Shown: positions 28,215-57,629, counted from the stretch's first letter. The stretch is 64,000 nucleotides of DNA from Terriglobia bacterium (GCA_965198225.1 CBDAOY010000009.1:736001-800000); one strand, 5' to 3'. The notes: a model not told the origin generated them from the sequence alone. Numbers and translations: made by a program.

Positions 28215-28667
28215 CGGGCAAGGTGCTCAGCGTTTTCAACGGTACGCCTACCATTTGCCCCAGAACTTTCCGCCAACATCCTCCGGAACAGATCTGTAGG
28301 ATTTCCACATGCCTGGTATGTCGTTAGCGTTCATCGGAAGTGCCGCGGCGAGCGCGGCCACAGGATGAGCGAGAAGTTCCCACCGCGGCAGTTTCGATAA
28401 CAAGACTTGAAGGAGGGCGCTGGCCGAATGCGGCGGACGCGGTGGGCTATGGAGAAAGTAGCCGGAAGCGGGCCGGATCTGGAGTGGCGTTGGGGCGAGG
28501 AGGGGGACCGGCGGTCGATGACCGCGTCGATGGTGTGAATCGGAAAGCAGTTGGGTCGGGGAATCGGTGGGTTGAAAGGACGGGATCTGAGGGGATTTTG
28601 CAGCGGAGGCACACTCCGGCGAGGACGTGGCTGAACCGCACGTCGGTCGTCGGTTTGTGAAGGAGGA

Positions 28668-29837
28668 TTAGGACGTATCGCATTGGAAGGCGAGCCTCGC
28701 TACGAGTTGCAGAGCGGTGAAGCGTTGGATGAGAGTCATCGGTCCCTGACAGTGCGGACACGACCAGGAAGAGTTCGAGGTGGTGGTTTCGTCAGATTCG
28801 ACCCTCGGCATGGCATCGAGGAGTTGGCGACAGAGAGCGAAGGCGGCCGACCGGCGGTAGTTGGCCATGAATCCGAAGTGTCGGATGCGGACGAAGCCCT
28901 TCGGCAGAACGTGCAATAAGAACCGTCGGATGAACTCGTCGGCCGCGAGTGTCATGATGCGACTCTTGTTGCCATTGCGGTAATCCCGCCAACGGAACCG
29001 GACCCGGTTACCGTCAAACGAGATCAATCGATGGTTGGAGATGGCGACCCGATGGGTGTAGCGGCCCAGGTAGCGGAGCACCTGTTCGGGGCCACCAAAG
29101 GGTCGTTTGATATAGACGACCCAGTTGCGGGAATGGATCTGGCGGCGGAACCGCCGAAAGTGTTGCGGTTCGCCGAAGGGTCGAATCGAGCCGGACAGTT
29201 CGAGCGAACCGTCGGCGATCGCTCGCCCGAGCCCGTCGATGAACTTGCCACGGAAGACTCGGGCGAGCACCTGCTTGGGGAGGAAGAAGCGCCCAGAACC
29301 CGGAATCCAACGGGACTGATCCGGAGCCAGTCCGCCGGCCGGTACCACGCAGTGGATGTGGGGATGGAACTCCAGGTTCTGACTCCAGGTATGCAGGATG
29401 CCGAAGAAGCCGATCCGGGCGCCGAGTCGTTTCGGATTGGCCGCCACCTCGATCATCGTGTCGGCCACGCTGCGAAACAGCAGGCTGTAGAGTAGGGCAG
29501 GGTTGTGGAAGAAGAACGGATGGAACTGGTGCGGGACGGTGAACACGACGTGGAAGTAGGGGGTGGGCAGCAGTTCGGCTTCTCGTGCTTCGAGCCACCG
29601 TCGTCGGGCCTGGGTCTGACACTTCGGGCAGTGGCGGTTGCGGCAGGAGTTGAACGAGATTCCGGACTCCCGGCCACAATCGGCACACCGGTCGATGTGG
29701 CCACCCAGAGCCGCAGTACGACAGTTCAGGATGGCGCGCAGGACCTTGAGCTTCTGGATGCCGAGGCGGTGACGCTGGAGGAAACCTCGAACCCGGGCGC
29801 GGACGATGTCGGCCACCTCGACGGCGGGCCGGCTCAT
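28668..29837 (-). CDS. IS91-family (Y2 HUH) transposase with Zn-binding domain
   Basis: CRTAALGGH..SCRNRHCPKC, HPHIHC (HUH), YLGRY, FLLHVLPKGFVRIRHFG; ATG 29837 overlaps the integrase stop. Confidence 0.93.
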   Translation of the reverse strand: MSRPAVEVADIVRARVRGFLQRHRLGIQKLKVLRAILNCRTAALGGHIDRCADCGRESGISFNSCRNRHCPKCQTQARRRWLEAREAELLPTPYFHVVFTVPHQFHPFFFHNPALLYSLLFRSVADTMIEVAANPKRLGARIGFFGILHTWSQNLEFHPHIHCVVPAGGLAPDQSRWIPGSGRFFLPKQVLARVFRGKFIDGLGRAIADGSLELSGSIRPFGEPQHFRRFRRQIHSRNWVVYIKRPFGGPEQVLRYLGRYTHRVAISNHRLISFDGNRVRFRWRDYRNGNKSRIMTLAADEFIRRFLLHVLPKGFVRIRHFGFMANYRRSAAFALCRQLLDAMPRVESDETTTSNSSWSCPHCQGPMTLIQRFTALQLVARLAFQCDTS

Positions 29838-30724
29838 TCGCCTTTCTTCTTTCTCAGACGGGGAGACGGTCCCAGATCGGGAACCGGAAGAGAATCGATC
29901 GGGTTCACCACGCGCTGCATGTGCGCCTGAGACAAATGGAGATAGAGGGTCGTCGCTTCCAGATCGACATGACCCAACAGGAGCTGGATGGTTCGCAGGT
30001 CGGTTCCCCTCTCCAGCAGGTGGGTGGCCCAGCTGTGGCGCAGCGTATGTGGGGATACTTTCTTTTTGATGCCGGCACGTTGGGCGGCTTGTTGGACGGC
30101 GTACCAAACCGTCTTCACATCGATGGGCTGTCCGGGCCGGGTCCGGAGCAAACTGGGGAAGAGGTACTCGCCGGGTTTCCGCCAACGCCAGTAGTCGCGC
30201 AGGACTTCCAGCAGTTTCGGTGACAGCGGCACGTCGCGGTCGCGATTGCCTTTACCCTGCCTCACATGGATCACCATGCGTTCGCTATCGACGTCCTCGA
30301 CCTTCAGACGACACAGCTCGGCCCGCCGCAGTCCCGTCGAATACAAGGTCATCAGGATGACGAAGTGATAGGCACTGTTGGCGGAGGCCAGCAGTTGCGC
30401 CACTTCCTCTTCGCTCAGAATCGTGGGCAACCGGGACGGCTGTTTCGGATAGACCAGATCGACCTGGTGATAGGGACGGCGAAGCACCTTCACGTAGAAG
30501 AACCGGAGTGCGGCGATCCGTCCGATGATGGTGTCGACAGCGAGCTTGCGCTCCTGAAGCAGATGCAGCTGGTACTGCCGCATCTGTTCCTGTTCGAGCT
30601 TGTCGGGGGACTTCCCGAAGTAGCGGGCGAAGTCTTCGACCGCGTGAAGATACAGCCGAATCGTAGCGGGTGAGTAGTTCCGGCGCTGGAGTTCCTCCAG
30701 CATCCGTTGTCGCAGCTTCGTCAT
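29834..30724 (-). CDS. Tyrosine recombinase (XerD/IntI-like with SAM-like N-terminus)
   Basis: YSTGLRRAE, GKGNRDR, HTLRHSWATHLLE..LLGH....TTLY; no obvious IntI I2 insertion. Confidence 0.93.
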   Translation of the reverse strand: MTKLRQRMLEELQRRNYSPATIRLYLHAVEDFARYFGKSPDKLEQEQMRQYQLHLLQERKLAVDTIIGRIAALRFFYVKVLRRPYHQVDLVYPKQPSRLPTILSEEEVAQLLASANSAYHFVILMTLYSTGLRRAELCRLKVEDVDSERMVIHVRQGKGNRDRDVPLSPKLLEVLRDYWRWRKPGEYLFPSLLRTRPGQPIDVKTVWYAVQQAAQRAGIKKKVSPHTLRHSWATHLLERGTDLRTIQLLLGHVDLEATTLYLHLSQAHMQRVVNPIDSLPVPDLGPSPRLRKKKGE

Positions 30725-31201
30725 GTGAGCCTCCTTGTGAGGCTCACACTCTATCGGGGGCTCATCACTCTTCGCTCAGCACACGCGTAGCGTCCGCCGC
30801 GCCAGCGGCTTCGTTCAAGTCGCCTACACTTCCTTGTGGATCTCGTCGGGAAAGCCGGGGGTCTGAATGTTCATCCAGTGGCCTTTGTCGTTCCGTTAGC
30901 AAGAGGACACTTTCTATTCGTTCACAAATGACTAAGAATCTGAATGCTGAATTATTTGAGGTGACAAATGTCTGCAAGAAATGGTGACAAGGCGCGCTTC
31001 AACCGTCTGCGCAAGGCAAAACTTCGGATGAGAGAACGTATCCGGGAAGTTCGAAAAGCACTGCAGGAACGAACCGCACGAGCAAATCCGAAGAAGAGTA
31101 CGACGCAAGGGGCTTGAGGTCAATGCAGTGGGCACTTTTCTTGTTAGCGCCCATGCACATCTACGAGTAGCCGACCGACCGCCGAAACCGGTTCGATCCC
31201 G

Positions 31202-31258
31202 ATCACAGTTGTTCTGAACTGATTCGAGGAACTGAAGGAACGTGTGCCAGTGCCTTAG
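31202..31258 (+). pseudogene. Kinase-propeller 3' remnant
   Basis: ITVVLN*FEELKERVPVP*. Confidence 0.8.
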
Positions 31259-31317
31259 GGATCTGTGTTCGAGCCTTCTGCCCCCGACAAACCCTCTCGA
31301 TCCGCCCCACTGCCCTC

Positions 31318-31358
31318 AATCCACCTTGCCGTATAGTCGCCATACCGGAGATGTGCCG
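31318..31358. repeat. Empty hairpin site H3
   Basis: AATCCACCT-TGCCGTATA-GTCG-CC-ATACCGGAG-ATGTGCCG. Confidence 0.7.
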
Positions 31359-31399
31359 TTATGATTGACCCCGACCCCTTCCTGTCGTTTCATCATCCA

Positions 31400-31458
31400 A
31401 TGGAACCTGGCGCCACACTTGGCCACTAGAGATCTTTTCTCCTCCTGGCAGGGCCGGG
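31400..31458 (+). pseudogene. Kinase 5' remnant
   Basis: MEPGATLGH then degraded HYEILSP codons, preceded by the TTGACC motif. Confidence 0.6.
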
Positions 31459-31600
31459 ACAACGGTCCTTTTATTTAGGTGCGAATAATGAGGGCAATTC
31501 GGAAAGAAATAGCGGAAGAGATCAGACAGGCTGCGCTTGAGGTTTTGCTCCTTCGCGCAAGGTCTGAATCGTTCTCTGGGGCATCGTACGGAGAATTACA

Positions 31601-33265
31601 ATGAAGAGATACCTAGTTACGATCCTCGTGGCCGGCCTCGCGGCTCCCGTCGTGTACGGCCAGCAGGCGCCGGACACGATCCTGACGAATGGCAAGGTCA
31701 TTACGGTCGACGATCAGTTCCGGATCGCAGAGGCAATCGCGATCCGCGGAGATCGATTCGTTGCGGTCGGTTCGAATGCCGAGATTACCGAACTCGCGGG
31801 ACCGAACACGGAGCGCATCGATCTCGAGGGGCGGTCCGTCGTCCCGGGTTTCATCGACAATCATGCGCACTTCATGGAGGAGGGTGCGTACTGGGATCTC
31901 GAGCTGCGGTTCGACGGCGTGGAGTCTCGCCAAGAGGCGTTGAACAGGCTCCGCGCAAAAGCGGACGAGACGCCGGACGGCGAATGGATATTCAACTTCG
32001 GAGGCTGGTCACCGGACCAGTTCGTCGAAGACAAATCTCCGTTTACGCGGGACGAGCTCGACCAGTACTCGCCGGACAATCCGGTCTATCTCATATTCTC
32101 CCGCTCGGACGCCTACATCAACAGCCGGGCCATCGATGCCATCGGCCTCGCAGAGATGAACGAGCCGTGGATTTACCGTGACGCCAACGGCAGAGCCACG
32201 GGTCAGATTGCACCGCAGGGTGCGGGCGCCGTGAGGCGGATGGCCAACTTCATCGACGCGCCGAACGGGGCGCGGGCGAACCTGCCGATGGACGTGGTGC
32301 GTTCCAGCAGCCTTGCGATGCTCCACGATCTCAACGCCGCGGGTCTGACGGCTTCAGGCGGCGCATGCCAGTGGGATGATCTCTATCGCGAGTTCCAGAA
32401 AGAGGGTGTCCAGAGCATGCGGTTTTTCTGCATGCAGGGGCCGAGTGCCGGGCGCGGGCCCGATGCACCTCAGCGTTTTCTCGCCGGACTTTCGGAACTG
32501 ACCTGGCACGACGGCGACGAGTGGATGGACAACACCACCCTTGGAGAGAACATTCCGGGCGGCGGTGGCGACAACCTCTACTCGGCAACCCAGGAACCCG
32601 TGTCGCAGGAGCAGTGGGATCTGTTCGGTGATCTTGCGCTCGAAGTGGCAAAGACAGGCGCCCAGGCGTTGATCCACACTCAGACCGAGGTTGCGATCGA
32701 AGGCAAGATGCGCCAGTTCGAGCGGATAAACGAGATCGTTCCGCTCAGATCCTTACGTTGGGGTCTCATGCATATGGAAGGCGTTACGGTCGATCAAATC
32801 GAACGGCTCCGTGATCTGAACATGGTCATCGCGGTGCATCCGCGCGAGATCGTTACTGGAGGGCTGCTGCTTCGGGTATGGGGCGATAAGAAGTACGCGA
32901 TGCCGCCGCTGCGAGATATTCAGAACATCGGCATCATGTGGGGCCTCGGTACCGACGCGTTCGAGGTCAATCAGTACCGTCCCTTCCAGACCCTATACTG
33001 GGCCGTGACGGGGAAGATGGTTGGCGGTGACGTAGTCAACACCCACACGGTGACGCGCGAGGAGGCCCTGATCGCCCATACGCGCAGCAACGCCTTTATC
33101 TTGTTCCGCGAGCACGATATCGGCTCGATCCAGGCGGGGCATCTAGCCGACCTGGTCGTGACCGACCGCGACTACCTGACGGTGCCGGCGGATGAGATCA
33201 AGGACATCAATCCGGTCATGACGATGGTGGGCGGCCGGATCGTCTACGATGGGAAAGGCTGGTAA
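31601..33265 (+). CDS. Secreted amidohydrolase (Amidohydro_3/YtcJ-like)
   Basis: Signal peptide; DLEGRSVVPGFIDNHAH; GSIQAGHLADLVV..TMVGGRIVY. Confidence 0.88.
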   Translation: MKRYLVTILVAGLAAPVVYGQQAPDTILTNGKVITVDDQFRIAEAIAIRGDRFVAVGSNAEITELAGPNTERIDLEGRSVVPGFIDNHAHFMEEGAYWDLELRFDGVESRQEALNRLRAKADETPDGEWIFNFGGWSPDQFVEDKSPFTRDELDQYSPDNPVYLIFSRSDAYINSRAIDAIGLAEMNEPWIYRDANGRATGQIAPQGAGAVRRMANFIDAPNGARANLPMDVVRSSSLAMLHDLNAAGLTASGGACQWDDLYREFQKEGVQSMRFFCMQGPSAGRGPDAPQRFLAGLSELTWHDGDEWMDNTTLGENIPGGGGDNLYSATQEPVSQEQWDLFGDLALEVAKTGAQALIHTQTEVAIEGKMRQFERINEIVPLRSLRWGLMHMEGVTVDQIERLRDLNMVIAVHPREIVTGGLLLRVWGDKKYAMPPLRDIQNIGIMWGLGTDAFEVNQYRPFQTLYWAVTGKMVGGDVVNTHTVTREEALIAHTRSNAFILFREHDIGSIQAGHLADLVVTDRDYLTVPADEIKDINPVMTMVGGRIVYDGKGW

Positions 33266-33393: not shown

Positions 33394-33477
33394 AGGTCTA
33401 TTCAGATGGCTAGGAGTCTGCGCGGAAGAACGACTTTTTCATTGTGACCACAGCATAGGTCTATTCAGATGGCTAGG
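33394..33477. repeat. Two exact 21 bp direct repeats
   Basis: AGGTCTATTCAGATGGCTAGG at 33394 and 33457. Confidence 0.8.
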
Positions 33478-33634: not shown

Positions 33635-33850
33635 ATGGCGGAAAGTGTTTACAAGGTTATCGAGCTGGTCGGGAGCAGTTCCGAATCATGGGACAAGGCA
33701 GCCGCAGCAGCCGTCGAGTTGGCCTCGGAGAGTCTGCGGGACTTGCGTGTCGCCGAGGTCTCGCAGTTGGATTTGCAACTGGAGGACGGCAAAGTTCGTG
33801 CCTACCGGGCCAGAGTGAAAGTCTCTTTCAAATACAAAGGTGGTGACTGA
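33635..33850 (+). CDS. Dodecin (flavin-binding)
   Basis: SVYKVIELVGSSSESWDKAA..YRARVKVSFK; AAGGAG RBS. Confidence 0.92.
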   Translation: MAESVYKVIELVGSSSESWDKAAAAAVELASESLRDLRVAEVSQLDLQLEDGKVRAYRARVKVSFKYKGGD

Positions 33851-34227
33851 GCCGGTGAGCTCATAGGTCCAGGCGCCCGGGCAAAACTCGGCTCGGGCGC
33901 TGGGCCGGCCCGAAACGAGGTCATGTTTTTCGCAGGGCTTCTTACGACAGGCGGAGGTGAATCGTATGATGACACGCTACGACGCAATCGGCGGCACAGG
34001 ACACCGGCCTTAGCGAACTTTCCCATCTACTGAAACCTCTTCCAACTTCAGTTAAGCAAACCGCCCGAACCCACTTGGACGTATCGTCGCCAAACCGGTA
34101 ATGTGCATCGCGGTCGAAAGCTCGCGATTCTCGACGGTTCCACTTTTCCGTATCAGCGGCACATCCACGCGCGGATTGACCCGGGCATTTGAACAACAGT
34201 CAATGGCCTTCAGGGGTGTGCAGTGAA

Positions 34228-37015: not shown

Positions 37016-37125
37016 CCTAGGAGCCCATACAGGGCAGAGAGAAACACCAGCCACAGTCGCCACGTGCTCAAGTCACGGAAGGTAGGCAATGCGCCCAGGG
37101 CGCGATCGTTTCGCCAGACTGTTTC

Positions 37126-37166
37126 AATCCGCTCGGACGTATGGTCGCCATCACGTACATGTGAAA
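37126..37166. repeat. Empty hairpin site H4
   Basis: AATCCGCTC-GGACGTATG-GTCG-CC-ATCACGTAC-ATGTGAAA. Confidence 0.65.
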
Positions 37167-37275
37167 AAGACCGGCCATAGCCTCGGTCCGACTACAGGCA
37201 GATGGAAGAGTACGCGGTTACCCAGGATGTGACCTTCTGATTGACCTCAAGTTGCTAACGTAGTTTTATTTACGG

Positions 37276-39972
37276 GTGATCCAACCCGGCCAGAACCTCG
37301 CACACTACGAAATACTCTCCCCGCTCGGCAAAGGCGGCATGGGGGAGGTGTGGAAGGCCAAGGACACAAAACTCGGACGTGAGGTCGCCATAAAGACGCT
37401 CCCCGAAGAGTTCGCCAAAGACGAAGAACGACTGGCCCGGTCTGAACGGGAGGCCAAGCTCCTGGCGTCGTTGAACCATCCCAACATCGCTGCGATCTAC
37501 GGTTTGGAAGAAGACAACGGCACCCGTTTCCTCGTCCTCGAACTGGTTGACGGAGACACGTTGGCGGAGCGATTGAAACGCGGTGCCATCCCAGTCGAAG
37601 AGTCGCTCAAACTCGGACTTCAAATCGCAGAAGCACTCGAAGCAGCACATGAAAAGGGCGTCATCCATCGTGATCTAAAACCGGCAAATATCAAGGTCAC
37701 ACCCGAGGGCAAGCTGAAGGTGCTGGACTTCGGGTTGGCGAAGGTGTTTGCGGAGGGCCAGGCTGATTTGAACCTGTCTCAGTCACCGACGTTGAGCATG
37801 GCCGTGACACAGCAAGGTGTGATCCTGGGGACAGCGGCGTACATGAGTCCCGAACAGGCACGGGGCAAGACTGTGGACACACGTGCGGACATCTGGGCCT
37901 TCGGGTGCGTGCTTTATGAGATGCTCACCGGCCGCCAGACGTGGGGCGGCGAAACCTTGACAGATATGATTGCTGCCGCCGTCGCGAAGGATCCCAACTG
38001 GAACGTTCTCCCTGTGGATCTCCATGCAAGAGTTCAAGAGCTACTCCGACGCTGTCTGGAGAAGGAAGCGAAGAACCGGTGGCAGGCTTCCGGGGATGTG
38101 CGGATTGAGATTGAACAGTTGTTGAGCAATCCAAACGGTCTGTTGGTGCAGCCGATTGCTCAAGTTGTCGAGGCAGCACTCCCGTCGAAACTGCCGTGGG
38201 TCGCGGCTGCAGTCGCCACGGTCGCCGCAATCGTGTTCGGTATTGCTTTGTGGCTTCCGTCGCAGCCGGAAGACCTACCGCTTGTGCGTCTGGATGTCGA
38301 CCTGGGGCAGGAGGTTTCACTGGGTGCAATCAACGGCCGCAGCGTCATCATGACTCCTGACGGGACGCGTATCGCGTATGTGGCCAGCGTCTCGGGCGGC
38401 CAGAGGCGGCTCTATACGCGGCGTCTCGATCAAGCCGACCCGACCGAACTCTCTGGAACCGACAGCGCCACCCTACCCTTCTTTTCTCCCGACGGAAAGT
38501 GGATTGGGTTCTTTGCCTCAGGCACGCTTAACAAGATTTCGGTGGAAGGCGGCGCGGTCGTTCCCCTGCGCGACGGGCCGTTTGCTGGAGGGAGCTGGGG
38601 AGAGGACGGAATCATCGTCTTCAGCCAGCCGCTCCCCGGGGGTCTCATGGCGATTCCCGAGGACGGGGGCGATGTCACGAGTCTGACGCCTCTGGATCAG
38701 GGAGAATTGGCCTTCGCCGAGCCGCAGATCCTGCCGGGTGGCCAGGCCGTATTGTTCTCGACCGCGGGATTCTCAGGCGGCGACCGCAATGTCGAGATCT
38801 TCTCTTTCGCTGACGGGGTTCGCAAGACCCTCGTCCGGGGAGCGACGAGCCCGGCGTATCTTCCCAGCGGCCATCTGGTGTACAACAGCGGCGGTACGCT
38901 GTTTGCCACACTGTTTGATCTGGACGCTCTGGAGACTCTTGGCTCCAGAGTGCCGGTTCTTGGTGACTTGGGAACTGATCCAAGCGGCGATACCTCGATG
39001 ACTTTCTCTCGAGACGGCGCCGTTGTGTACCGGAGCGGTGGTGAAGCGGCGGCGAAGTTCGCTCAGAGTACAGTCGAATGGCTCGACAGTGAAGGCAACC
39101 GCGACCCCCTGATCTCGACCGCCGGCGGATATCTGACCCCGCGGCTCTCACCGGACGCCGAGCAGGTGGTACTGACAACCATCGAAGGAAGCGACGTACG
39201 CGTATCGGTCTACGACCTCGAACGCGACAATATGACGCGATTGACGTTTGACGACGGCTTTTATTCCTCGCCCGTCTGGAGCCCCGACCAGCAAAACGTT
39301 GTTTTTGGGGCGATGGGAGTCGGTCTCCTCCAGGCGCGGGTGGACGGAGCCGGCCCACCCCAGCCGCTGTTGGAAACAAACGTAGCATTACTCCCGTTTT
39401 CATTCGCCCCTGACCAGCGACTGGCATATTTCGAGGCAGGTGAAGGAGGAGGCGACATTCGAACCGTAGCCGTGGAGGACAACGGCAATCGGTTGACGGC
39501 GGGTGAGCCCGAGGCGTTTCTAGCCACCCCTTTTAACGAGGCTCCAAACAGGTTTTCCCCCGACGGGCGGTGGCTGGCGTATCAATCGAACGAGTCGGGC
39601 CAGAACGAAGTGAGTGTGCGAGCCTTTCCGCCGCCGTCTTCGGGGGAAGGCGCTCGGTTTCCGATCTCTAACGGCGGTGGGTACTTTGCGGTATGGTCGC
39701 CCAACTCTCCTGAACTCTTCTACCGTTCCCTTGAAGACCAGATCATGGTCGTCGACTGGCGGGTGGAGGGCGACCGGTTCATCGCCGACCGGCCCCGCGT
39801 GTGGGCGGCAGACCCCGGCGGGCAGTTCTGGGACATGGCCCCGGACGGACGGGCATTGCTGACGGTCCGCGTAGAAACGGACGAAGCACAGGAAGAACCC
39901 GAGGCGGACCATCACGTCGTGTTCTTGGGGAACTTCTTCGACTATCTTCGCCGCGAAGTGCCGGTGCCTTAG
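37276..39972 (+). CDS. Ser/Thr kinase-TM-PD40 propeller protein K5 (intact)
   Basis: GKGGMG, VAIK, HRDLKPAN, DFG, GTAAYMSPE; TM; SPDG repeats; ends NFFDYLRREVPVP. Confidence 0.93.
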   Translation: MIQPGQNLAHYEILSPLGKGGMGEVWKAKDTKLGREVAIKTLPEEFAKDEERLARSEREAKLLASLNHPNIAAIYGLEEDNGTRFLVLELVDGDTLAERLKRGAIPVEESLKLGLQIAEALEAAHEKGVIHRDLKPANIKVTPEGKLKVLDFGLAKVFAEGQADLNLSQSPTLSMAVTQQGVILGTAAYMSPEQARGKTVDTRADIWAFGCVLYEMLTGRQTWGGETLTDMIAAAVAKDPNWNVLPVDLHARVQELLRRCLEKEAKNRWQASGDVRIEIEQLLSNPNGLLVQPIAQVVEAALPSKLPWVAAAVATVAAIVFGIALWLPSQPEDLPLVRLDVDLGQEVSLGAINGRSVIMTPDGTRIAYVASVSGGQRRLYTRRLDQADPTELSGTDSATLPFFSPDGKWIGFFASGTLNKISVEGGAVVPLRDGPFAGGSWGEDGIIVFSQPLPGGLMAIPEDGGDVTSLTPLDQGELAFAEPQILPGGQAVLFSTAGFSGGDRNVEIFSFADGVRKTLVRGATSPAYLPSGHLVYNSGGTLFATLFDLDALETLGSRVPVLGDLGTDPSGDTSMTFSRDGAVVYRSGGEAAAKFAQSTVEWLDSEGNRDPLISTAGGYLTPRLSPDAEQVVLTTIEGSDVRVSVYDLERDNMTRLTFDDGFYSSPVWSPDQQNVVFGAMGVGLLQARVDGAGPPQPLLETNVALLPFSFAPDQRLAYFEAGEGGGDIRTVAVEDNGNRLTAGEPEAFLATPFNEAPNRFSPDGRWLAYQSNESGQNEVSVRAFPPPSSGEGARFPISNGGGYFAVWSPNSPELFYRSLEDQIMVVDWRVEGDRFIADRPRVWAADPGGQFWDMAPDGRALLTVRVETDEAQEEPEADHHVVFLGNFFDYLRREVPVP

Positions 39973-40380
39973 GCTCTCCGTCTCGCTGGCCGAACTCCGA
40001 GCACGGTTGTAGGAATTCCACTTGGCCGTATGGTCGTTAGCGTTCATCGGAAGTGCCGCGGCGAGCGCGGCCACAGGATGAGCGAGAAGTTCCCACCGCG
40101 GCAGTTTCGATAACAAGACTTGAAGGAGGGCGCTGGCCGAATGCGGCGGACGCGGTGGGCTATGGAGAAAGTAGCCGGAAGCGGGCCGGATCTGGAGTGG
40201 CGTTGGGGCGAGGAGGGGGACCGGCGGTCGATGACCGCGTCGATGGTGTGAATCGGAAAGCAGTTGGGTCGGGGAATCGGTGGGTTGAAAGGACGGGATC
40301 TGAGGGGATTTTGCAGCGGAGGCACACTCCGGCGAGGACGTGGCTGAACCGCACGTCGGTCGTCGGTTTGTGAAGGAGGA

Positions 40381-41550
40381 TTAGGACGTATCGCATTGGA
40401 AGGCGAGCCTCGCTACGAGTTGCAGAGCGGTGAAGCGTTGGATGAGAGTCATCGGTCCCTGACAGTGCGGACACGACCAGGAAGAGTTCGAGGTGGTGGT
40501 TTCGTCAGATTCGACCCTCGGCATGGCATCGAGGAGTTGGCGACAGAGAGCGAAGGCGGCCGACCGGCGGTAGTTGGCCATGAATCCGAAGTGTCGGATG
40601 CGGACGAAGCCCTTCGGCAGAACGTGCAATAAGAACCGTCGGATGAACTCGTCGGCCGCGAGTGTCATGATGCGACTCTTGTTGCCATTGCGGTAATCCC
40701 GCCAACGGAACCGGACCCGGTTACCGTCAAACGAGATCAATCGATGGTTGGAGATGGCGACCCGATGGGTGTAGCGGCCCAGGTAGCGGAGCACCTGTTC
40801 GGGGCCACCAAAGGGTCGTTTGATATAGACGACCCAGTTGCGGGAATGGATCTGGCGGCGGAACCGCCGAAAGTGTTGCGGTTCGCCGAAGGGTCGAATC
40901 GAGCCGGACAGTTCGAGCGAACCGTCGGCGATCGCTCGCCCGAGCCCGTCGATGAACTTGCCACGGAAGACTCGGGCGAGCACCTGCTTGGGGAGGAAGA
41001 AGCGCCCAGAACCCGGAATCCAACGGGACTGATCCGGAGCCAGTCCGCCGGCCGGTACCACGCAGTGGATGTGGGGATGGAACTCCAGGTTCTGACTCCA
41101 GGTATGCAGGATGCCGAAGAAGCCGATCCGGGCGCCGAGTCGTTTCGGATTGGCCGCCACCTCGATCATCGTGTCGGCCACGCTGCGAAACAGCAGGCTG
41201 TAGAGTAGGGCAGGGTTGTGGAAGAAGAACGGATGGAACTGGTGCGGGACGGTGAACACGACGTGGAAGTAGGGGGTGGGCAGCAGTTCGGCTTCTCGTG
41301 CTTCGAGCCACCGTCGTCGGGCCTGGGTCTGACACTTCGGGCAGTGGCGGTTGCGGCAGGAGTTGAACGAGATTCCGGACTCCCGGCCACAATCGGCACA
41401 CCGGTCGATGTGGCCACCCAGAGCCGCAGTACGACAGTTCAGGATGGCGCGCAGGACCTTGAGCTTCTGGATGCCGAGGCGGTGACGCTGGAGGAAACCT
41501 CGAACCCGGGCGCGGACGATGTCGGCCACCTCGACGGCGGGCCGGCTCAT
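40381..41550 (-). CDS. IS91-family transposase
   Basis: Identical translation to copy 1. Confidence 0.93.
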   Translation of the reverse strand: MSRPAVEVADIVRARVRGFLQRHRLGIQKLKVLRAILNCRTAALGGHIDRCADCGRESGISFNSCRNRHCPKCQTQARRRWLEAREAELLPTPYFHVVFTVPHQFHPFFFHNPALLYSLLFRSVADTMIEVAANPKRLGARIGFFGILHTWSQNLEFHPHIHCVVPAGGLAPDQSRWIPGSGRFFLPKQVLARVFRGKFIDGLGRAIADGSLELSGSIRPFGEPQHFRRFRRQIHSRNWVVYIKRPFGGPEQVLRYLGRYTHRVAISNHRLISFDGNRVRFRWRDYRNGNKSRIMTLAADEFIRRFLLHVLPKGFVRIRHFGFMANYRRSAAFALCRQLLDAMPRVESDETTTSNSSWSCPHCQGPMTLIQRFTALQLVARLAFQCDTS

Positions 41551-42437
41551 TCGCCTTTCTTCTTTCTCAGACGGGGAGACGGTCCCAGATCGGGAACCGG
41601 AAGAGAATCGATCGGGTTCACCACGCGCTGCATGTGCGCCTGAGACAAATGGAGATAGAGGGTCGTCGCTTCCAGATCGACATGACCCAACAGGAGCTGG
41701 ATGGTTCGCAGGTCGGTTCCCCTCTCCAGCAGGTGGGTGGCCCAGCTGTGGCGCAGCGTATGTGGGGATACTTTCTTTTTGATGCCGGCACGTTGGGCGG
41801 CTTGTTGGACGGCGTACCAAACCGTCTTCACATCGATGGGCTGTCCGGGCCGGGTCCGGAGCAAACTGGGGAAGAGGTACTCGCCGGGTTTCCGCCAACG
41901 CCAGTAGTCGCGCAGGACTTCCAGCAGTTTCGGTGACAGCGGCACGTCGCGGTCGCGATTGCCTTTACCCTGCCTCACATGGATCACCATGCGTTCGCTA
42001 TCGACGTCCTCGACCTTCAGACGACACAGCTCGGCCCGCCGCAGTCCCGTCGAATACAAGGTCATCAGGATGACGAAGTGATAGGCACTGTTGGCGGAGG
42101 CCAGCAGTTGCGCCACTTCCTCTTCGCTCAGAATCGTGGGCAACCGGGACGGCTGTTTCGGATAGACCAGATCGACCTGGTGATAGGGACGGCGAAGCAC
42201 CTTCACGTAGAAGAACCGGAGTGCGGCGATCCGTCCGATGATGGTGTCGACAGCGAGCTTGCGCTCCTGAAGCAGATGCAGCTGGTACTGCCGCATCTGT
42301 TCCTGTTCGAGCTTGTCGGGGGACTTCCCGAAGTAGCGGGCGAAGTCTTCGACCGCGTGAAGATACAGCCGAATCGTAGCGGGTGAGTAGTTCCGGCGCT
42401 GGAGTTCCTCCAGCATCCGTTGTCGCAGCTTCGTCAT
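41547..42437 (-). CDS. Tyrosine recombinase
   Basis: Identical translation to copy 1. Confidence 0.93.
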   Translation of the reverse strand: MTKLRQRMLEELQRRNYSPATIRLYLHAVEDFARYFGKSPDKLEQEQMRQYQLHLLQERKLAVDTIIGRIAALRFFYVKVLRRPYHQVDLVYPKQPSRLPTILSEEEVAQLLASANSAYHFVILMTLYSTGLRRAELCRLKVEDVDSERMVIHVRQGKGNRDRDVPLSPKLLEVLRDYWRWRKPGEYLFPSLLRTRPGQPIDVKTVWYAVQQAAQRAGIKKKVSPHTLRHSWATHLLERGTDLRTIQLLLGHVDLEATTLYLHLSQAHMQRVVNPIDSLPVPDLGPSPRLRKKKGE

Positions 42438-42621
42438 GTGAGCCTCCTTGTGAGGCTCACACTCTATCGGGGGCTCATCACTCTTCGCTCAGCACACGCG
42501 TAGCGTCCGCCGCGCCAGCGGCTTCGTTCAAGTCGCCGATACGGAAAAGTGAATCGACCACGGCAAGATCGAGACGCTAGCGATACGCTTCTCGCCGATG
42601 TCTGATCGCAACAAGTGGGTC

Positions 42622-42657
42622 ATCCACATTCCCTATCGTCGATACTTCCATGTAGAT
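42622..42657. repeat. Empty hairpin site H6
   Basis: ATCCACAT-TCCCTATC-GTCG-ATACTTCC-ATGTAGAT. Confidence 0.65.
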
Positions 42658-42844
42658 CTCGTCGAAAAGCCCCGTCTTACCTCGGTTTTTCCACTCTTCC
42701 GACCAGGCGGTGATACATCCATGTGACTGTTTGATTGCTACCAACCCCTTCCTGCCGTAGTATTTACGCAAGTTTCAGCAAATTCGCGAAGTAATGCTCT
42801 GTAGTGGGGGTCTATGACCGCCGGCCTTTAGTTGGAGGCAACCC

Positions 42845-48335: not shown

Positions 48336-48611
48336 CTAGAGTCCTGAGTCAGAAATACGTTCACTATCTCCGATGGATGTTGCCAGCTGCCCGGGGGGCG
48401 TTGAATCGATCGACAACGGGGGCATGCACGCGACCGGCTCGGCCCTCACGACCCGCAACTTCCATCGGCCCTGCGGGTTCGGGCGGAACGGCGCCGTCTT
48501 TGGAGTCGCTCCTCCTCGCAATGAATGAGCATTGGCTCGTCGTCGCTCCGCCAAATCCAGCGTCGTTGCGCTCCGAAATATAGCAACCGTATTTCTGACT
48601 CAGGACACTAG
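48336..48611. mobile_element. MITE-like non-autonomous element
   Basis: Perfect 19 bp inverted repeats GTCCTGAGTCAGAAATACG (48341-48359; 48588-48606), CTAG outside both ends. Confidence 0.75.
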
Positions 48612-49374: not shown

Positions 49375-49955
49375 CTGCGCATTGGGACCACGTCGAGGGA
49401 CACGCGGCTATGAAGCGAATGACCGGTGCGCAGGTTGTTGCGCTCGGCGGCGACGCTGTGGCGCTCCAATCAGGCAAGGACAACTCGGCCCTCGGGGCCC
49501 GAGGCTGGGAGCCTGTCACGGTGGATCGCGTGGTCGAGGACGGTGACACGGTTGCGCTGGGTGGAGTGACGTTGCGCGCCCTCTGGACGGGGGGCCACAC
49601 GCAAGGAGCAACGATGTGGATGACAACCGTCCAGGAGGGTGGGGACACCTACTCGGTCGCCTTCCGCGGCGGCGAAATTCCGAACCCGGGGGTTCAGCTC
49701 TTCAACAATCCCCGGCACCCGACGGTTGTCGCCGACACGCAGAGGACGCTTCAAAGGCTGAAGGAGCTCAAACCTCCCGACCTCTTCCTCCACAATCACC
49801 CGCAGAATCCGCCCCGCGAGTTGGACCCGGCTCTTCCTGTCGACCCGAGGTGTGTAACCTGCTTTGACGCGGAAGGGTGGAGGAGTCTCGTGGCGCGTGT
49901 CGAAGCCAGATTCGAAGCGATGCTCCGGGAAGCGGGGGGCCGACCGGACCGTTAG
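49375..49955 (+). pseudogene. Subclass B3-like metallo-beta-lactamase, N-terminally truncated
   Basis: AHWDHVEG (partial HxHxDH), VDRVVEDGDTVALGG, GHTQG; no N-terminus. Confidence 0.7.
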
Positions 49956-49982
49956 GGTGAGAGTTGCCACCGGGGCGCCGGC

Positions 49983-53043: not shown

Positions 53044-53076
53044 AAAGAACTGAAGGAACGGTCGCCGGTGCCGTAG
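53044..53076 (+). pseudogene. Kinase-propeller 3' remnant
   Basis: KELKERSPVP*. Confidence 0.7.
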
Positions 53077-53169
53077 CCTTCGCTGAGCGACCTTCCAACC
53101 ACCGCAACTCTCTTCCGACTACAGGAATCAGCAGTCCTCGACAATCCACGGGGATGTATGGCCGCCGAC

Positions 53170-53785
53170 ACTCCAAGCTCGGACGTGAAGTCGCCATCAA
53201 GACCCTCCCCGAGGAGTTTGCCAATGACGGGGAGCGACTGGCCCTCTTTGAGCGTGAAGCGAAGCTACTCGCCTCGTTGAACCATCCGAACATCGCCACG
53301 TTCCACGGTTTGGAAGAAGACAACGGTACCCGGTTTCTCGTCTTGGAACTCGTTGAAGGCGACACGCTGGCGTACAGGCTGAAGCGCGGCGCCATCCCCG
53401 TCGAAGAATCCCTCAAGCTCGCGCTCCAGATCGCCGAAGCGCTCGAAGCCGCTCACGAGAAGGGCATCATCCTCCGGGTCCTGAAACCCGCAAAAATAAA
53501 AGTCACACCCGACGGCAAGCTGAAGGTCCTGGATTTCGGTCTGGCGAAGGCATTTGCGGGGGATGGTTCCGACGTGAACTTGTCGCACTCCCCAACGATT
53601 AGCATGGCGGCGACGCAGCAGGGCACGATTCTCGGAACGGCCGCATACATGTCCCCCGAGCAAGCCAAGGGACGCGAGATCGACAAGAGGACCGACATAT
53701 GGGCCTTTGGCTGCGTGCTCTACGAAATGCTCATAGGCCGATCCGCCTTTGGCGGTGAAGACGTTGCGGATACGCTTGCGTTCGT
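53170..53785 (+). pseudogene. Kinase-domain fragment K8, catalytically degenerate
   Basis: Starts at [10 protein letters not shown]; HRDLKPANI replaced by LRVLKPAKI; homology ends at DVADTLA. Confidence 0.85.
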
Positions 53786-54014
53786 GGGGATAAGTAAAAT
53801 AGGAGGGGTTGGCAGTGTAGGGTGTGTGGGAAGCGCAGCCGAGGCCAACCTGGTGCCGGAGGCTCGCGGCCGGGTGGTTTCCCAGCCCGGCATACTGGTT
53901 TCACAGGCGGTTCCAACGCATGGACACGTTGATTTGCACGGGCCAGTACGCTACTTTTGAATGTCGTTTTTTCGATATGGATTACAGAGCGCGATATCAA
54001 AGAAAGACCAACCT

Positions 54015-54782
54015 ATGACACCCATTCTGCGTCTATTTCGAATCCTGCTGCCGGGCATCATAGTGGGCATCGCTTTGAATGCGGCATTCCAGACCAGCGC
54101 GTACAGTCAAGCCCCAGAAGGGTCACCTACAAGAGCGTATAAGCCGCGCCCGCCGGAAGGTAAAGTTCCCATTCTCTGGATTGGTGGTGGCGACTGGCAC
54201 GATACATTGAATAACGCCGGTATCCTGCGATGGTACCTTGAAGCAGCGGGTCCTTACCACATCACTTACACCGAGGATTATGACGTGTTCACCCGCCTGC
54301 GCCCATATCGCGTGGTCGTGATGCATCACCAGGCCCGCAGTATCACAAATGCTGAAGAGCGTGCCCTGCTGGATGCGGTTTCAGCAGGGAAGCCGGTCGT
54401 GGCCCTGCACTCCAGCACGGCGGCGCTCCGGGTTGAAGGGCACGAGCGTCCCAAATATCACGCACTGCTGGGCGCGCGGTTTCTCAAACACCCTCCCCAA
54501 CACGACTTTCGCGTAACGCTGACCGACCGCGCTCATCCCATCCTCAGCGGGCTGGACGATTTCAACATCTGGGACGAGCTCTATATGTTTGACAGTCTCC
54601 AGCCCGATCGCCATGTGTTGATGACCGCGGACTTTGAGGGAACTACCTATCCTATCGCCTGGACCCGGCAGCATGGAAAGGGGAAGGTGTTCTACACGGC
54701 ACTGGGGCACGGCGTCGAGGCCAACAGCAACCCACACTTTCAGCGCCTCGTCCACCAGGCAATCGAATGGGCCCTGGAGTAA
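54015..54782 (+). CDS. ThuA-like (trehalose utilisation, GATase-like) domain protein
   Basis: Signal peptide; GGGDWHD, VALHSS, DELY, PIAWTRQHGKGKVFYTALGH. Confidence 0.85.
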   Translation: MTPILRLFRILLPGIIVGIALNAAFQTSAYSQAPEGSPTRAYKPRPPEGKVPILWIGGGDWHDTLNNAGILRWYLEAAGPYHITYTEDYDVFTRLRPYRVVVMHHQARSITNAEERALLDAVSAGKPVVALHSSTAALRVEGHERPKYHALLGARFLKHPPQHDFRVTLTDRAHPILSGLDDFNIWDELYMFDSLQPDRHVLMTADFEGTTYPIAWTRQHGKGKVFYTALGHGVEANSNPHFQRLVHQAIEWALE

Positions 54783-54869
54783 GGATCGTGGTCCGGCCGT
54801 AGCAGGAGTAATTGCATGGCTGGCTCAGACCACGCCGCGGCCGGACAGCCAGTCAAATCCTTCACTGCA

Positions 54870-54924
54870 GATCAACGTCGTCTTGAACTGGACGGAAGAA
54901 CTAAAGGAACGGGTGCCGGTGCCC
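54870..54924 (+). pseudogene. Kinase-propeller 3' remnant
   Basis: INVVLNWTEELKERVPVP. Confidence 0.85.
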
Positions 54925-55343
54925 TATTCGCCGCCACCGAACCTCCCCGACAGCGTCTCGGTTTGCCACTCTGTTTCAATCCACATGCTCGAAAAGTCGT
55001 TAGCGTTCATCGGAAGTGCCGCGGCGAGCGCGGCCACAGGATGAGCGAGAAGTTCCCACCGCGGCAGTTTCGATAACAAGACTTGAAGGAGGGCGCTGGC
55101 CGAATGCGGCGGACGCGGTGGGCTATGGAGAAAGTAGCCGGAAGCGGGCCGGATCTGGAGTGGCGTTGGGGCGAGGAGGGGGACCGGCGGTCGATGACCG
55201 CGTCGATGGTGTGAATCGGAAAGCAGTTGGGTCGGGGAATCGGTGGGTTGAAAGGACGGGATCTGAGGGGATTTTGCAGCGGAGGCACACTCCGGCGAGG
55301 ACGTGGCTGAACCGCACGTCGGTCGTCGGTTTGTGAAGGAGGA

Positions 55344-56513
55344 TTAGGACGTATCGCATTGGAAGGCGAGCCTCGCTACGAGTTGCAGAGCGGTGAAGCG
55401 TTGGATGAGAGTCATCGGTCCCTGACAGTGCGGACACGACCAGGAAGAGTTCGAGGTGGTGGTTTCGTCAGATTCGACCCTCGGCATGGCATCGAGGAGT
55501 TGGCGACAGAGAGCGAAGGCGGCCGACCGGCGGTAGTTGGCCATGAATCCGAAGTGTCGGATGCGGACGAAGCCCTTCGGCAGAACGTGCAATAAGAACC
55601 GTCGGATGAACTCGTCGGCCGCGAGTGTCATGATGCGACTCTTGTTGCCATTGCGGTAATCCCGCCAACGGAACCGGACCCGGTTACCGTCAAACGAGAT
55701 CAATCGATGGTTGGAGATGGCGACCCGATGGGTGTAGCGGCCCAGGTAGCGGAGCACCTGTTCGGGGCCACCAAAGGGTCGTTTGATATAGACGACCCAG
55801 TTGCGGGAATGGATCTGGCGGCGGAACCGCCGAAAGTGTTGCGGTTCGCCGAAGGGTCGAATCGAGCCGGACAGTTCGAGCGAACCGTCGGCGATCGCTC
55901 GCCCGAGCCCGTCGATGAACTTGCCACGGAAGACTCGGGCGAGCACCTGCTTGGGGAGGAAGAAGCGCCCAGAACCCGGAATCCAACGGGACTGATCCGG
56001 AGCCAGTCCGCCGGCCGGTACCACGCAGTGGATGTGGGGATGGAACTCCAGGTTCTGACTCCAGGTATGCAGGATGCCGAAGAAGCCGATCCGGGCGCCG
56101 AGTCGTTTCGGATTGGCCGCCACCTCGATCATCGTGTCGGCCACGCTGCGAAACAGCAGGCTGTAGAGTAGGGCAGGGTTGTGGAAGAAGAACGGATGGA
56201 ACTGGTGCGGGACGGTGAACACGACGTGGAAGTAGGGGGTGGGCAGCAGTTCGGCTTCTCGTGCTTCGAGCCACCGTCGTCGGGCCTGGGTCTGACACTT
56301 CGGGCAGTGGCGGTTGCGGCAGGAGTTGAACGAGATTCCGGACTCCCGGCCACAATCGGCACACCGGTCGATGTGGCCACCCAGAGCCGCAGTACGACAG
56401 TTCAGGATGGCGCGCAGGACCTTGAGCTTCTGGATGCCGAGGCGGTGACGCTGGAGGAAACCTCGAACCCGGGCGCGGACGATGTCGGCCACCTCGACGG
56501 CGGGCCGGCTCAT
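55344..56513 (-). CDS. IS91-family transposase
   Basis: Identical translation to copy 1. Confidence 0.93.
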   Translation of the reverse strand: MSRPAVEVADIVRARVRGFLQRHRLGIQKLKVLRAILNCRTAALGGHIDRCADCGRESGISFNSCRNRHCPKCQTQARRRWLEAREAELLPTPYFHVVFTVPHQFHPFFFHNPALLYSLLFRSVADTMIEVAANPKRLGARIGFFGILHTWSQNLEFHPHIHCVVPAGGLAPDQSRWIPGSGRFFLPKQVLARVFRGKFIDGLGRAIADGSLELSGSIRPFGEPQHFRRFRRQIHSRNWVVYIKRPFGGPEQVLRYLGRYTHRVAISNHRLISFDGNRVRFRWRDYRNGNKSRIMTLAADEFIRRFLLHVLPKGFVRIRHFGFMANYRRSAAFALCRQLLDAMPRVESDETTTSNSSWSCPHCQGPMTLIQRFTALQLVARLAFQCDTS

Positions 56514-57400
56514 TCGCCTTTCTTCTTTCTCAGACGGGGAGACGGTCCCAGATCGGGAACCGGAAGAGAATCGATCGGGTTCACCACGCGCTGCATGTGC
56601 GCCTGAGACAAATGGAGATAGAGGGTCGTCGCTTCCAGATCGACATGACCCAACAGGAGCTGGATGGTTCGCAGGTCGGTTCCCCTCTCCAGCAGGTGGG
56701 TGGCCCAGCTGTGGCGCAGCGTATGTGGGGATACTTTCTTTTTGATGCCGGCACGTTGGGCGGCTTGTTGGACGGCGTACCAAACCGTCTTCACATCGAT
56801 GGGCTGTCCGGGCCGGGTCCGGAGCAAACTGGGGAAGAGGTACTCGCCGGGTTTCCGCCAACGCCAGTAGTCGCGCAGGACTTCCAGCAGTTTCGGTGAC
56901 AGCGGCACGTCGCGGTCGCGATTGCCTTTACCCTGCCTCACATGGATCACCATGCGTTCGCTATCGACGTCCTCGACCTTCAGACGACACAGCTCGGCCC
57001 GCCGCAGTCCCGTCGAATACAAGGTCATCAGGATGACGAAGTGATAGGCACTGTTGGCGGAGGCCAGCAGTTGCGCCACTTCCTCTTCGCTCAGAATCGT
57101 GGGCAACCGGGACGGCTGTTTCGGATAGACCAGATCGACCTGGTGATAGGGACGGCGAAGCACCTTCACGTAGAAGAACCGGAGTGCGGCGATCCGTCCG
57201 ATGATGGTGTCGACAGCGAGCTTGCGCTCCTGAAGCAGATGCAGCTGGTACTGCCGCATCTGTTCCTGTTCGAGCTTGTCGGGGGACTTCCCGAAGTAGC
57301 GGGCGAAGTCTTCGACCGCGTGAAGATACAGCCGAATCGTAGCGGGTGAGTAGTTCCGGCGCTGGAGTTCCTCCAGCATCCGTTGTCGCAGCTTCGTCAT
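56510..57400 (-). CDS. Tyrosine recombinase
   Basis: Identical translation to copy 1. Confidence 0.93.
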   Translation of the reverse strand: MTKLRQRMLEELQRRNYSPATIRLYLHAVEDFARYFGKSPDKLEQEQMRQYQLHLLQERKLAVDTIIGRIAALRFFYVKVLRRPYHQVDLVYPKQPSRLPTILSEEEVAQLLASANSAYHFVILMTLYSTGLRRAELCRLKVEDVDSERMVIHVRQGKGNRDRDVPLSPKLLEVLRDYWRWRKPGEYLFPSLLRTRPGQPIDVKTVWYAVQQAAQRAGIKKKVSPHTLRHSWATHLLERGTDLRTIQLLLGHVDLEATTLYLHLSQAHMQRVVNPIDSLPVPDLGPSPRLRKKKGE

Positions 57401-57629
57401 GTGAGCCTCCTTGTGAGGCTCACACTCTATCGGGGGCTCATCACTCTTCGCTCAGCACACGCGTAGCGTCCGCCGCGCCAGCGGCTTCGTTCAAGTCGCC
57501 TATGCTCCCATGTGGATCTTGCCAGAAAGGCCCCGTTTCAGGCGCTTCGCAGGTTTCTCCGTATCGGCGGCGTTACAGGATATTGCCTTCCTGATTGACC
57601 CCAAGTCCGTTCCGTAGTCTGATCTAGGC

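Follow-up and report, generated by a model that had tools for sequence, protein, structure and literature searches.

How an insertion sequence (IS) that encodes two different recombination enzymes finds its target is the question raised by a stretch of 64,000 nucleotides (nt) from a Terriglobia bacterium (GCA_965198225.1 CBDAOY010000009.1:736001-800000), called the window in the following. This window is part of contig C9 in a genome of 6.4 Mb (G000; nine contigs, 97% complete) and carries copies of an IS91-family element with a Y2-HUH transposase and a tyrosine recombinase, inserted at a GTCG core in the centre of a repeated symmetric site. We favour, with a probability of roughly 0.55, an active IS91 rolling-circle element whose core would be defined by a complementary segment within the element itself, and whose target arms would be read by a protein, likeliest the recombinase. 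This reading is carried by a short internal repeat that changes together with the right terminus from lineage to lineage, and by arms that surround the insertion point in fixed register.

The element, its genes and its copies

The element has a length of 2,503 nt, displays GTCG at both ends and is present in ten copies in the genome, four of them in the window. The copies, the occupied site of copy 1 and the two genes are as follows.

28320..30822, genes on the minus strand: element copy 1; its left end in window orientation is transposase-distal and oriIS-like
40033..42535, minus strand: element copy 2; half-sites 40015-40032 and 42536-42558
54996..57498, minus strand: element copy 3; half-sites 54978-54995 and 57499-57521
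61352..62139, minus strand: truncated copy 4, the origin-end 788 nt; left half-site 61334-61351
28302..28319, plus strand: half-site to the left of copy 1, TTTCCACATGCCTGGTAT
30823..30845, plus strand: half-site to the right of copy 1, CC TACACTTCC TTGTGGATC
29834..30724, minus strand: tyrosine recombinase gene, 296 amino acids (aa), Xer/IntI-like; Pfam Phage_integrase 5.6e-44 plus SAM_4
28668..29837, minus strand: Y2-HUH transposase gene of the IS91 family, 389 aa; Pfam Y2_Tnp 1.7e-62, Zn_Tnp_IS91 1.6e-30

An earlier interpretation made from the DNA alone (the sequence-only reading) had described an IS91-family element with a tyrosine recombinase, and this is confirmed by Pfam and NCBIfam. 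The two genes are coupled by an ATGA overlap of the recombinase stop and the transposase start. The transposase reaches 432.6 bits against the NCBIfam equivalog transpos_IS91 (cut-off 125), and the combination of an HUH-Y2 domain with an N-terminal zinc-binding domain, by which the family is recognised, is found by Pfam, by NCBIfam and in the motifs HPHIH and YLGRY, read by eye.

The recombinase revealed RKHRHY-type motifs, likewise read by eye, and the two-domain organisation of Xer-type enzymes; its best Protein Data Bank (PDB) matches are XerC-like 4a8e, XerA 5hxy and IntI4 2a3v. It passes the NCBIfam model XerA_Arch marginally (223 bits, cut-off 220) and stays below the cut-offs of the XerC and XerD models, as well as those of the integron integrase model TIGR02249 (202.9 bits, cut-off 265, matched in two stretches with a break near residue 177) and of PRK15417 (134.9, cut-off 435). 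It cannot be counted as an IntI, the IntI-specific segment being missing and the family scores being below the cut-off. This pattern fits the available part of 10.1101/542381, where the recombinases of IS91 transposons fall in an integron-like subgroup, beside IntI, without the extra helices of the latter. A partial recombinase gene on another contig (C6:644902-645630; 57% identical, residues 1-241), about 150 nt from an unoccupied target site at C6:645787, is probably a relic of another family of the same kind of element.

The boundaries of the copies are sharp. As had been described, all four window copies lie in one orientation with GTCG exactly 9 nt past TCCACAT or TCCACTT, and the three full ones, all of 2,503 nt, close with GTCG at 30822, 42535 and 57498, followed by CC, nine nucleotides and the arms TTGTGGA, AAGTGAA and ATGTGGA. 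In the whole genome, GTCG stands at the left boundary of all ten copies and at all full right ends, and the two bases that follow (CC; in two copies, AC) are flank sequence. Target and terminus therefore carry like tetranucleotides, as in IS91, an arrangement that is indistinguishable from a 4-bp duplication by sequence alone. Copy 4 stops at 62139 at an internal GGGTCGTT (internal GTCGTT) with no right half-site after it; the same element position is also the end of a Logan contig of 789 nt. The copies on the window's contig are 100% identical. Of all ten, six are intact and identical, and one each has a 4.3-kb insertion, a small deletion, a rearrangement or a truncation; the insertion (C6:342076-346377) interrupts its copy at element position 2434/2435, in the right-end region.

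The objection that the copies might be assembly duplicates was checked and does not hold, since the flanks are distinct in all ten copies, the element is about 9 to 12 times deeper than its flank in Logan contigs of other runs (158.9 against 13.4, ~12x, in X3; 88.3 against 10.2, ~9x, in X4), and contigs break at 40033-40038 and 42522-42537, i.e., at the element ends. These depths are single figures per contig, and one run may be the window's own source.

A repeated symmetric target

The target is a repeated site of about 40 bp, TCCAC-N11-GTCG-N13-GTGGA, with the element in a single orientation at the dyad centre; the axis falls within GTCG and the insertion point 1 nt from it. With up to one mismatch, TCCAC was found at -16..-12 in 8 of the 10 left flanks (the remaining two have two mismatches) and GTGGA at +14..+18 in 7 of the 8 right flanks, the copy on contig C7 failing with three mismatches. 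Among 20,000 random GTCG sites, the left arm is present in 1.5%, the right in 1.6% and both together in 0.015%. A check for copies at GTCG lacking inverted arms, proposed by the sequence-only reading, thus came out in favour of the arms. Symmetry across the insertion point amounts to 10.6 of 20 positions on average in 16 sites, in comparison to 8.64 (sd 1.37) at random GTCG sites. Taken together, the distinct flanks of the ten copies, the depth of the element, the rarity of both arms at random sites and the same relation of element and site in other genomes leave assembly artefact or chance a negligible probability.

Unoccupied equivalents had been noted nearby, and five such sites lie in the window.

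27647..27695, plus strand: empty site, core GTCG at 27664; nhmmer E 1.6e-8
31313..31360, plus strand: empty site, core GTCG at 31336; 98% similarity to the related genome G002 begins exactly at the core
34063..34115, plus strand: empty site, core GTCG at 34086; 98% similarity to G002 begins exactly at the core
37120..37170, plus strand: empty site, core GTCG at 37144; identical in G002
42621..42670, plus strand: empty variant site, core ATCG at 42635

In total, an nhmmer profile of the reconstructed sites revealed 19 empty sites in the genome (E 2.5e-12 to 0.17, the weakest being uncertain), 16 with a GTCG and three with an ATCG core, TCG.C being invariant at the centre. Sites and copies form about five clusters in regions rich in paralogous Ser/Thr kinase-PD40 genes, and 28 of the 29 are co-oriented within their own contig. 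For the two window copies whose surroundings were compared with other genomes, no orthologous empty site was obtained: the flanks of copy 2 have no orthologue in G001-G003, and at copy 3 the match to G002 begins 88 nt from the insertion point. The arms do not appear to be copies of the element's own ends, as the similarity at best scored 12.5 against 11.3 (sd 0.9; z ~1.3), and for the right end below the controls.

Two other searches for sites were set aside: a loose scan for ATCCAC..GTGGAT with one mismatch per arm gave 2,168 matches, no more than non-complementary controls, and an iterated nhmmer search went down to 17 matches, as half-sites of occupied copies had entered the profile. The kinase genes with PD40 beta-propeller repeats number at least six in the window, are co-oriented (15421-27254, 37276-39972, 42845-48135, 53154-54782) and have starts that are 60-83% identical in DNA; split or shortened genes occur among them, and the element sites lie in the spacers of this region.

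Does the element recognise a fold? On this explanation, the single-stranded target would be recognised once folded into a hairpin that presents GTCG in the loop, comparable to attC sites or to the nick sites of rolling-circle replicons. The near-coincidence of insertion point and axis speaks for it, as do the action of HUH enzymes on single strands and the bottom-strand circle, the active IS91 intermediate according to the available part of PMC13181058; moreover, a 13-pair structure of the sites is paired in 52.9% of the cells in register 0 and in only 31-46% in slid registers. However, shuffled alignments reach 56.1%, with 472 of 500 shuffles as high, so that the covariation check set by the sequence-only reading turned out negative. 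The 16 reconstructed sites fold with a mean DNA energy of -5.5 kcal/mol, no better than the -7.3 (sd 2.7) of random GTCG sites, RNAalifold found no consensus pairs in them, and the arms of a site pair no better with each other than with arms swapped in from other sites. The arms are kept as sequence, and three related lineages (B, C and D, below) use targets with no significant dyad symmetry. Given that there is no better folding, no consensus structure and no covariation, the symmetry is to be seen as a property of the consensus sequence. A target hairpin is thus not demonstrably supported by folding or covariation, and we consider it improbable. Of the palindromes said to be restored upon removal of the element, the dyad symmetry of the consensus stands, but the pairing of each site's own arms does not; likewise, the claim of a target beyond a tetranucleotide stands as orientation-specific insertion at GTCG in a dyad-symmetric site, but not as recognition of a hairpin. 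GTCG as a new core was overstated, since the available part of PMC13181058 lists GTCC in IS1294b, CTCG as the terIS of IS91 and GTCG in 1 of 277 IS91 insertions.

The internal complement of the right terminus

Close to the left end of the element lies a segment that is complementary to its right terminus. The features concerned are given here for copy 1.

28329..28332, plus strand: inner GTTC of the left end; right-end counterpart 30813-30816
28333..28398, plus strand: subterminal origin-end hairpin, TCGGAAGTGCCGCGG ... CCGCGGCAGTTTCGA; DNA fold z -0.9, arms conserved across families
28404..28411, plus strand: internal repeat or 'guide' GACTTGAA, element positions 85-92; exact complement of TTCAAGTC
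30814..30822, plus strand: right terminus TTCAAGTC plus G, terIS-like; its last four bases are the GTCG core common with the target

The internal repeat is situated just 3' of the origin-end hairpin, and its pairing with the terminus was seen on folding the joined ends. Hairpins are predicted at both element ends with z of only -0.6 to -1.2 against shuffles, their arms being conserved across families. The 8-nt complement is the outer edge of an imperfect inverted repeat of about 37 nt with the right end (score 20 against 7.8, sd 1.5).

Related elements allowed a comparison between lineages. Recombinase homologues (E <=1e-30) occur in 27 of 40 related genomes, a count which includes ordinary Xer-like genes, and several of the 40 contain multi-copy families of related elements. 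Family A (G002, G020) is 88% identical to the G000 element and shares its GTCG ends, site and core; of its copies, 5 of 10 have the left arm in register and 6 of 8 the right arm, a footprint having shifted the register on the left in two more, and its targets are dyad-symmetric (z 4.7, n=7). Families B (G015) and C (G002) display AAAC(G) ends and prefer other repeated sequences as targets, the consensus of family B reading ATTACTCCCGATA, then AAC, then GCCGAAG.GT, while family D (G005, G012) has the core WAAC(C). Targets of B, C and D revealed no significant dyad symmetry (z -0.2, 0.1 and 1.3), and their recombinases are 67%, 64% and 58% identical to that of the G000 element. Families B and C also contain head-to-tail tandem copies with one shared core.

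Three further observations concern these relatives. The flanks of family D resemble the arms of the G000 sites by eye, not significantly. In near-identical family A copies (L001-L011) and at C6:342005 of G000, the two bases before the right-end GTCG vary (AA, TA, TT, TG), the same set as before GTCG in target sites. In locus L092 of G002, the counterpart of the site at 37144 of the window is followed, 65 nt to its right, by a family-C-like element in reverse orientation (~9190-11700); this element is inserted directly after GGTTA, and beyond it the match of G000 and G002 ends.

The internal segment and the terminus were found in the following pairs.

G000 element, family A, L012, L013: internal GACTTGAA, terminus TTCAAGTC
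Families B, C and E, L066: internal CGTTTGAA, terminus TTCAAACG
Family D, G012: internal GGTTTGAA, terminus TTCAAACC
Family F: internal TGAACTAAAC, terminus GTTTAGTTCA
L128, a locus titled Acetobacteraceae: a 14-nt pair
L121, L122: pairs of 9-10 nt

Over eight base pairs in 13 aligned elements, 89.4% of the cells are paired, in comparison to 76.2% (sd 2.4) in shuffles, and the covariation score is 0.407 against 0.173; none of 500 shuffles was as high in either measure. Slid registers are paired to 21-47% only. Three pairs change on both sides (GC/CG 8:4, AU/GC 6:6, CG/UA 6:6). Family F is misaligned at the right end in this alignment, which counts against the structure there. Among 21 loci from other taxa, the longest complementary k-mer between both ends lies in the expected places in seven (L109, L113, L121, L122, L123, L127, L128), and in the other 14 it is no longer than in the reversed-sequence control; two further loci were too short. 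To judge from these alignments, the insertion core, i.e., the 3-5 nt common with the target, is written in the element and differs by lineage (GTCG, AAACG, AACC and others).

The ends contain a second tetranucleotide. Families A, B, C and E all keep a GTTC 9 nt inward of the left end and 6 nt inward of the right end, while the outer core varies between lineages; IS801 and IS1294 use GTTC as their canonical tetranucleotide (available part of PMC13181058). Footprints of the form GTCG-YTAGCGTTC-WW-RTCG occur in G002 and G003, either at sites or in the left flanks of copies. They are made up of the first 9 nt of the element, the 2 nt that precede its terminal core and one more core (15 nt), and show a precise loss from the left GTTC^ to the right GTTC^. 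The exact 19-nt pattern was found four times in G002, once in G003 and in none of the other 38 genomes, the reversed control giving no match in all 40; a sixth footprint is a variant shorter by 1 nt. G000 has none, as all ten exact left-end boxes belong to copies, and no copy lacking the 15-nt outer parts was seen among 21 examined. The element thus has two pairs of cut points, the inner GTTC and the outer core.

Mechanism, moved segments and known systems

To the right of copy 1, neighbouring DNA has been moved as well.

30823..31339, plus strand: segment of ~510 nt, from the GTCG at the copy 1 right end to the GTCG of the next site; three genome places, 97-98% identity

This segment is found beside copy 1, beside another element copy on C6 and alone at a third place. 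It is bounded by two site cores, with two internal GTCGs passed over. Its boundaries, like those of the blocks described below, fit either an IS91-style read-through to the next site or recombination between sites. Together with the end of copy 4 at an internal GTCG and the tandem relatives, a 510-nt read-through is consistent with rolling-circle, one-ended transposition.

In the mechanism that we prefer, the HUH-Y2 transposase would nick after GTCG at the origin end, and the displaced strand would be circularised once the right terminus is recognised through the internal repeat, either by intrastrand pairing like that of IS200/IS605 guides or through identical protein contacts at terminus and repeat. 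This circle would then be joined 3' of a matching GTCG. A dimeric protein, most probably the element's own recombinase, would read the sequence of the symmetric arms (about 36 bp) in double-stranded DNA; it would deliver the element to its sites and may also resolve or excise copies. Read-through at the right end as far as the next site's GTCG would carry neighbouring DNA along. The GTCG at both ends matches the IS91 rule that the target tetranucleotide at the origin end equals or resembles the terminal one. The assignment of the arms to the recombinase is a guess.

Several points weigh against this proposal. The recombinases of families B and C are closer to that of the G000 element than that of D, yet the targets of B and C have no dyad symmetry, which speaks against the assignment of the arms. 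The 13 aligned elements represent only about 4-6 independent lineages, the fifth pair is unpaired in 5 of 13 rows (the W position of family A), and only 3-5 nt of the target can pair with the internal repeat. Nor does pairing alone account for the skipping of ATCTCGTCG within the 510-nt segment, which has 5 of 8 matches, the same as the used site. Because the 8 nt are the edge of the ~37-nt inverted repeat, co-evolution of protein-bound repeats is an alternative to base pairing. Since GTTC is conserved and the footprints are cut there, the transposase's own sites may be GTTC, leaving GTCG to the recombinase. Finally, no end-to-end or circle joint occurs in the Logan contigs of four runs, and no reaction step was observed; in the same runs, no contig joins 40032 to 42536, which is uninformative on excision, and one internal skip of 2,319 nt has a short side of only 29 nt.

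The role of GTTC leads to an alternative with nested reactions, in which the transposase would act at the inner GTTC only, and the Xer/IntI-like recombinase would integrate and excise the element at the outer GTCG. The common core would be the overlap region, and the internal repeat would fold the single-stranded joint into a duplex-like form, as in attC and the CTX phage. The constancy of GTTC next to a varying outer core and the six GTTC-to-GTTC losses fit this well, and the target resembles the core site of a recombinase, with inverted arms around a crossover and an invariant TCG.C. The recombinase groups with IntI (profile scores and the available part of 10.1101/542381), a precedent exists in an ISCR2-related unit that is moved by a tyrosine integrase through recombination at att sites (available part of PMC9376610), and an element-free copy of the 510-nt segment between cores would arise more easily by site-to-site recombination. 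On the other side, a circle cut at the inner GTTC would lack the core, so that one reaction would not simply feed into the other. With 24 nt between the arms and only 4 nt in the common core, the site departs from classical tyrosine recombinase sites, which have overlaps of 6-8 bp. No copy without outer parts was among the 21, the Logan contigs contained neither excision nor circle joints, and GTCG is within the known range of IS91 enzymes (available part of PMC13181058). Catalysis by the recombinase ranks close behind the complement-defined core, and we regard the nested scheme as possible, if still rather unlikely.

A further explanation sees the sites as joints between head-to-tail mobile segments, with the element's enzymes building and reshuffling integron-like arrays, each gene-carrying segment having a right half-site at its start and a left half-site at its end. 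From 27.6 to 42.7 kb, single genes (amidohydrolase, DUF305 protein, kinase) do lie between co-oriented sites, the sites are confined to about five regions, the 510-nt segment is core-bounded in three contexts, and tandem copies share one core. The amidohydrolase and DUF305 segments of G000 match those of G002 at about 98% identity, as against 86% in an ordinary flank; this similarity starts exactly at the cores 31336 and 34086, and between the two a 745-nt segment of G000 is replaced by about 290 unrelated nucleotides in G002. However, there are only 11 blocks of at least 93% identity between 295 kb of G002 arrays and G000, and starts at a core were found in them at these two positions only; two block junctions examined in detail are not at sites. 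Boundaries at the core, as an integron-type array would have them, are thus seen for 31336, 34086 and the 510-nt segment but not for the other ends of common blocks. In addition, the half-sites lack significant likeness to the element ends, and duplication of paralogous genes together with their spacers could also have spread the sites. We therefore hold this array explanation to be doubtful. Equally doubtful is a more far-reaching form of the complement-defined core, in which a reprogrammable guide would pair with both terminus and target core and, together with the recombinase, would shuffle integron-like arrays whose segments cross species at 98% identity.

The surroundings revealed other repeats and exchanged pieces. 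Two stretches of the window (14541-15736 and 49376-49974) are 98.4% identical to G003 (reversed) and 94.7% to G002, in different order and context; the whole region is a mosaic shared by different species. A miniature transposable element is suggested by a small repeat whose inverted ends start with CCTAGGAGCCTGCGCGG; the 162-nt copy of this repeat in the amidohydrolase segment of G002 (L092 ~3690-3850) has no counterpart at that place in G000, a related piece being located at ~33400 of the window (33400-33470). A small open reading frame within the 745-nt segment (33700-33920) has the product MAESVYKVIELVGSS..., which we take to resemble a dodecin-type protein. At 48336-48611 lies a repeat of about 275 nt with 91-93% identity to several other genome places, and a sister family, represented at C6:604156-604428, exceeds 40 copies, which are 95-99% identical.

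Some members of the IS91 family listed in ISfinder also have an upstream tyrosine recombinase, namely ISAzo26, ISWz1, ISSod25, ISMno23, ISSde12 and ISShvi3. They share with our element the order of recombinase, then transposase, and the integron-like subgroup without extra helices (available part of 10.1101/542381); in the accessible parts of the reports that name them, which are resistance-gene or genome reports, no role or target preference of the recombinase was found described. The rules for IS91 (available part of PMC13181058) comprise a target tetranucleotide beside oriIS, a terminal cleavage tetranucleotide, one-ended transposition and single-strand circles. According to the same source, IS91, IS801, IS1294 and IS1294b resemble the element in their transposase family, the lack of inverted repeats at the very ends, matching origin and terminal tetranucleotides, subterminal palindromes (predicted ones in our element), a small upstream gene coupled to tnpA by a stop/start overlap (orf121 in IS91) and the co-mobilisation of DNA beyond the terminus. 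In contrast, the upstream gene here encodes a 296-aa tyrosine recombinase, the target is a ~40-bp repeated site in place of a bare tetranucleotide, and an outer GTCG has the conserved GTTC nested inside each end. The internal complement covarying with the core is a further difference to the classical elements, compared by description only.

Among elements that insert specifically in repeated extragenic palindromes (REP, BIME), IS1397, ISKpn1, ISPa11, ISPpu9/10 and ISPsy8 (available part of PMC1525189) display a similar habit. They belong to the IS3 and IS110 families (DDE/DEDD), however, and against the hundreds of dispersed REPs stand about 29 clustered, co-oriented sites; no RAYT gene (PF01797, 0 matches) was found in the 97% complete genome, so the sites do not qualify as REPs. 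Integrons, IS1111-attC elements, group IIC-attC introns and CTX-phage/XerCD have in common with our locus an Xer/IntI-like recombinase, co-oriented imperfect palindromes between genes and a lodged element. Compared with integrons, the IntI-specific segment is missing, the crossover is at the dyad centre and not at the GTT of an R' box, and the sites fold weakly; the likeness to IS1111-attC elements drawn by the sequence-only reading therefore holds as an analogy for the Xer/IntI-like recombinase, but does not extend to the extra IntI segment. In GIsul2, a tyrosine integrase moves an IS91/ISCR-type unit (CR2-sul2) by att-core recombination (available part of PMC9376610); there, the integrase is on a separate genomic island with a single attB next to guaA, whereas here it is encoded in the IS and the sites form a repeat family.

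What is known here is the IS91 family, with GTCG within the tolerance of its enzymes, and what is new against the literature found is the target habit and the internal complement, for both of which we found no description. For palindrome targeting by IS91 elements as for an internal complement or guide, the literature searched lay outside the ISfinder notes and the supplements of PMC13181058; the available part of that paper does not mention such a complement. IS91/ISCR elements are major movers of adjacent genes. The locus supplies a natural series of occupied, empty and footprint sites, lineages in which core and internal segment change together, and traces of a capture of neighbours from site to site, and so gives a handle on target choice in the recombinase-carrying IS91 subgroup, with the terminus, the target and the role of the recombinase being testable with simple mutants. 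The closest parallel for the complement is found in the HUH elements of the IS200/IS605 group (IS608). A short stretch inside those elements, next to a subterminal hairpin, corresponds to the sequence that is cleaved and targeted, and the target is thereby encoded in the element's own DNA. The transposase is of the Y1 type there and of the Y2 type here, and a partly non-canonical pairing of 4 nt there contrasts with plain complementarity of 8-10 nt here, for which pairing is suggested by covariation only. If the core is indeed read by DNA pairing, this family would join IS200/IS605 as elements with a DNA-encoded, changeable choice of target.

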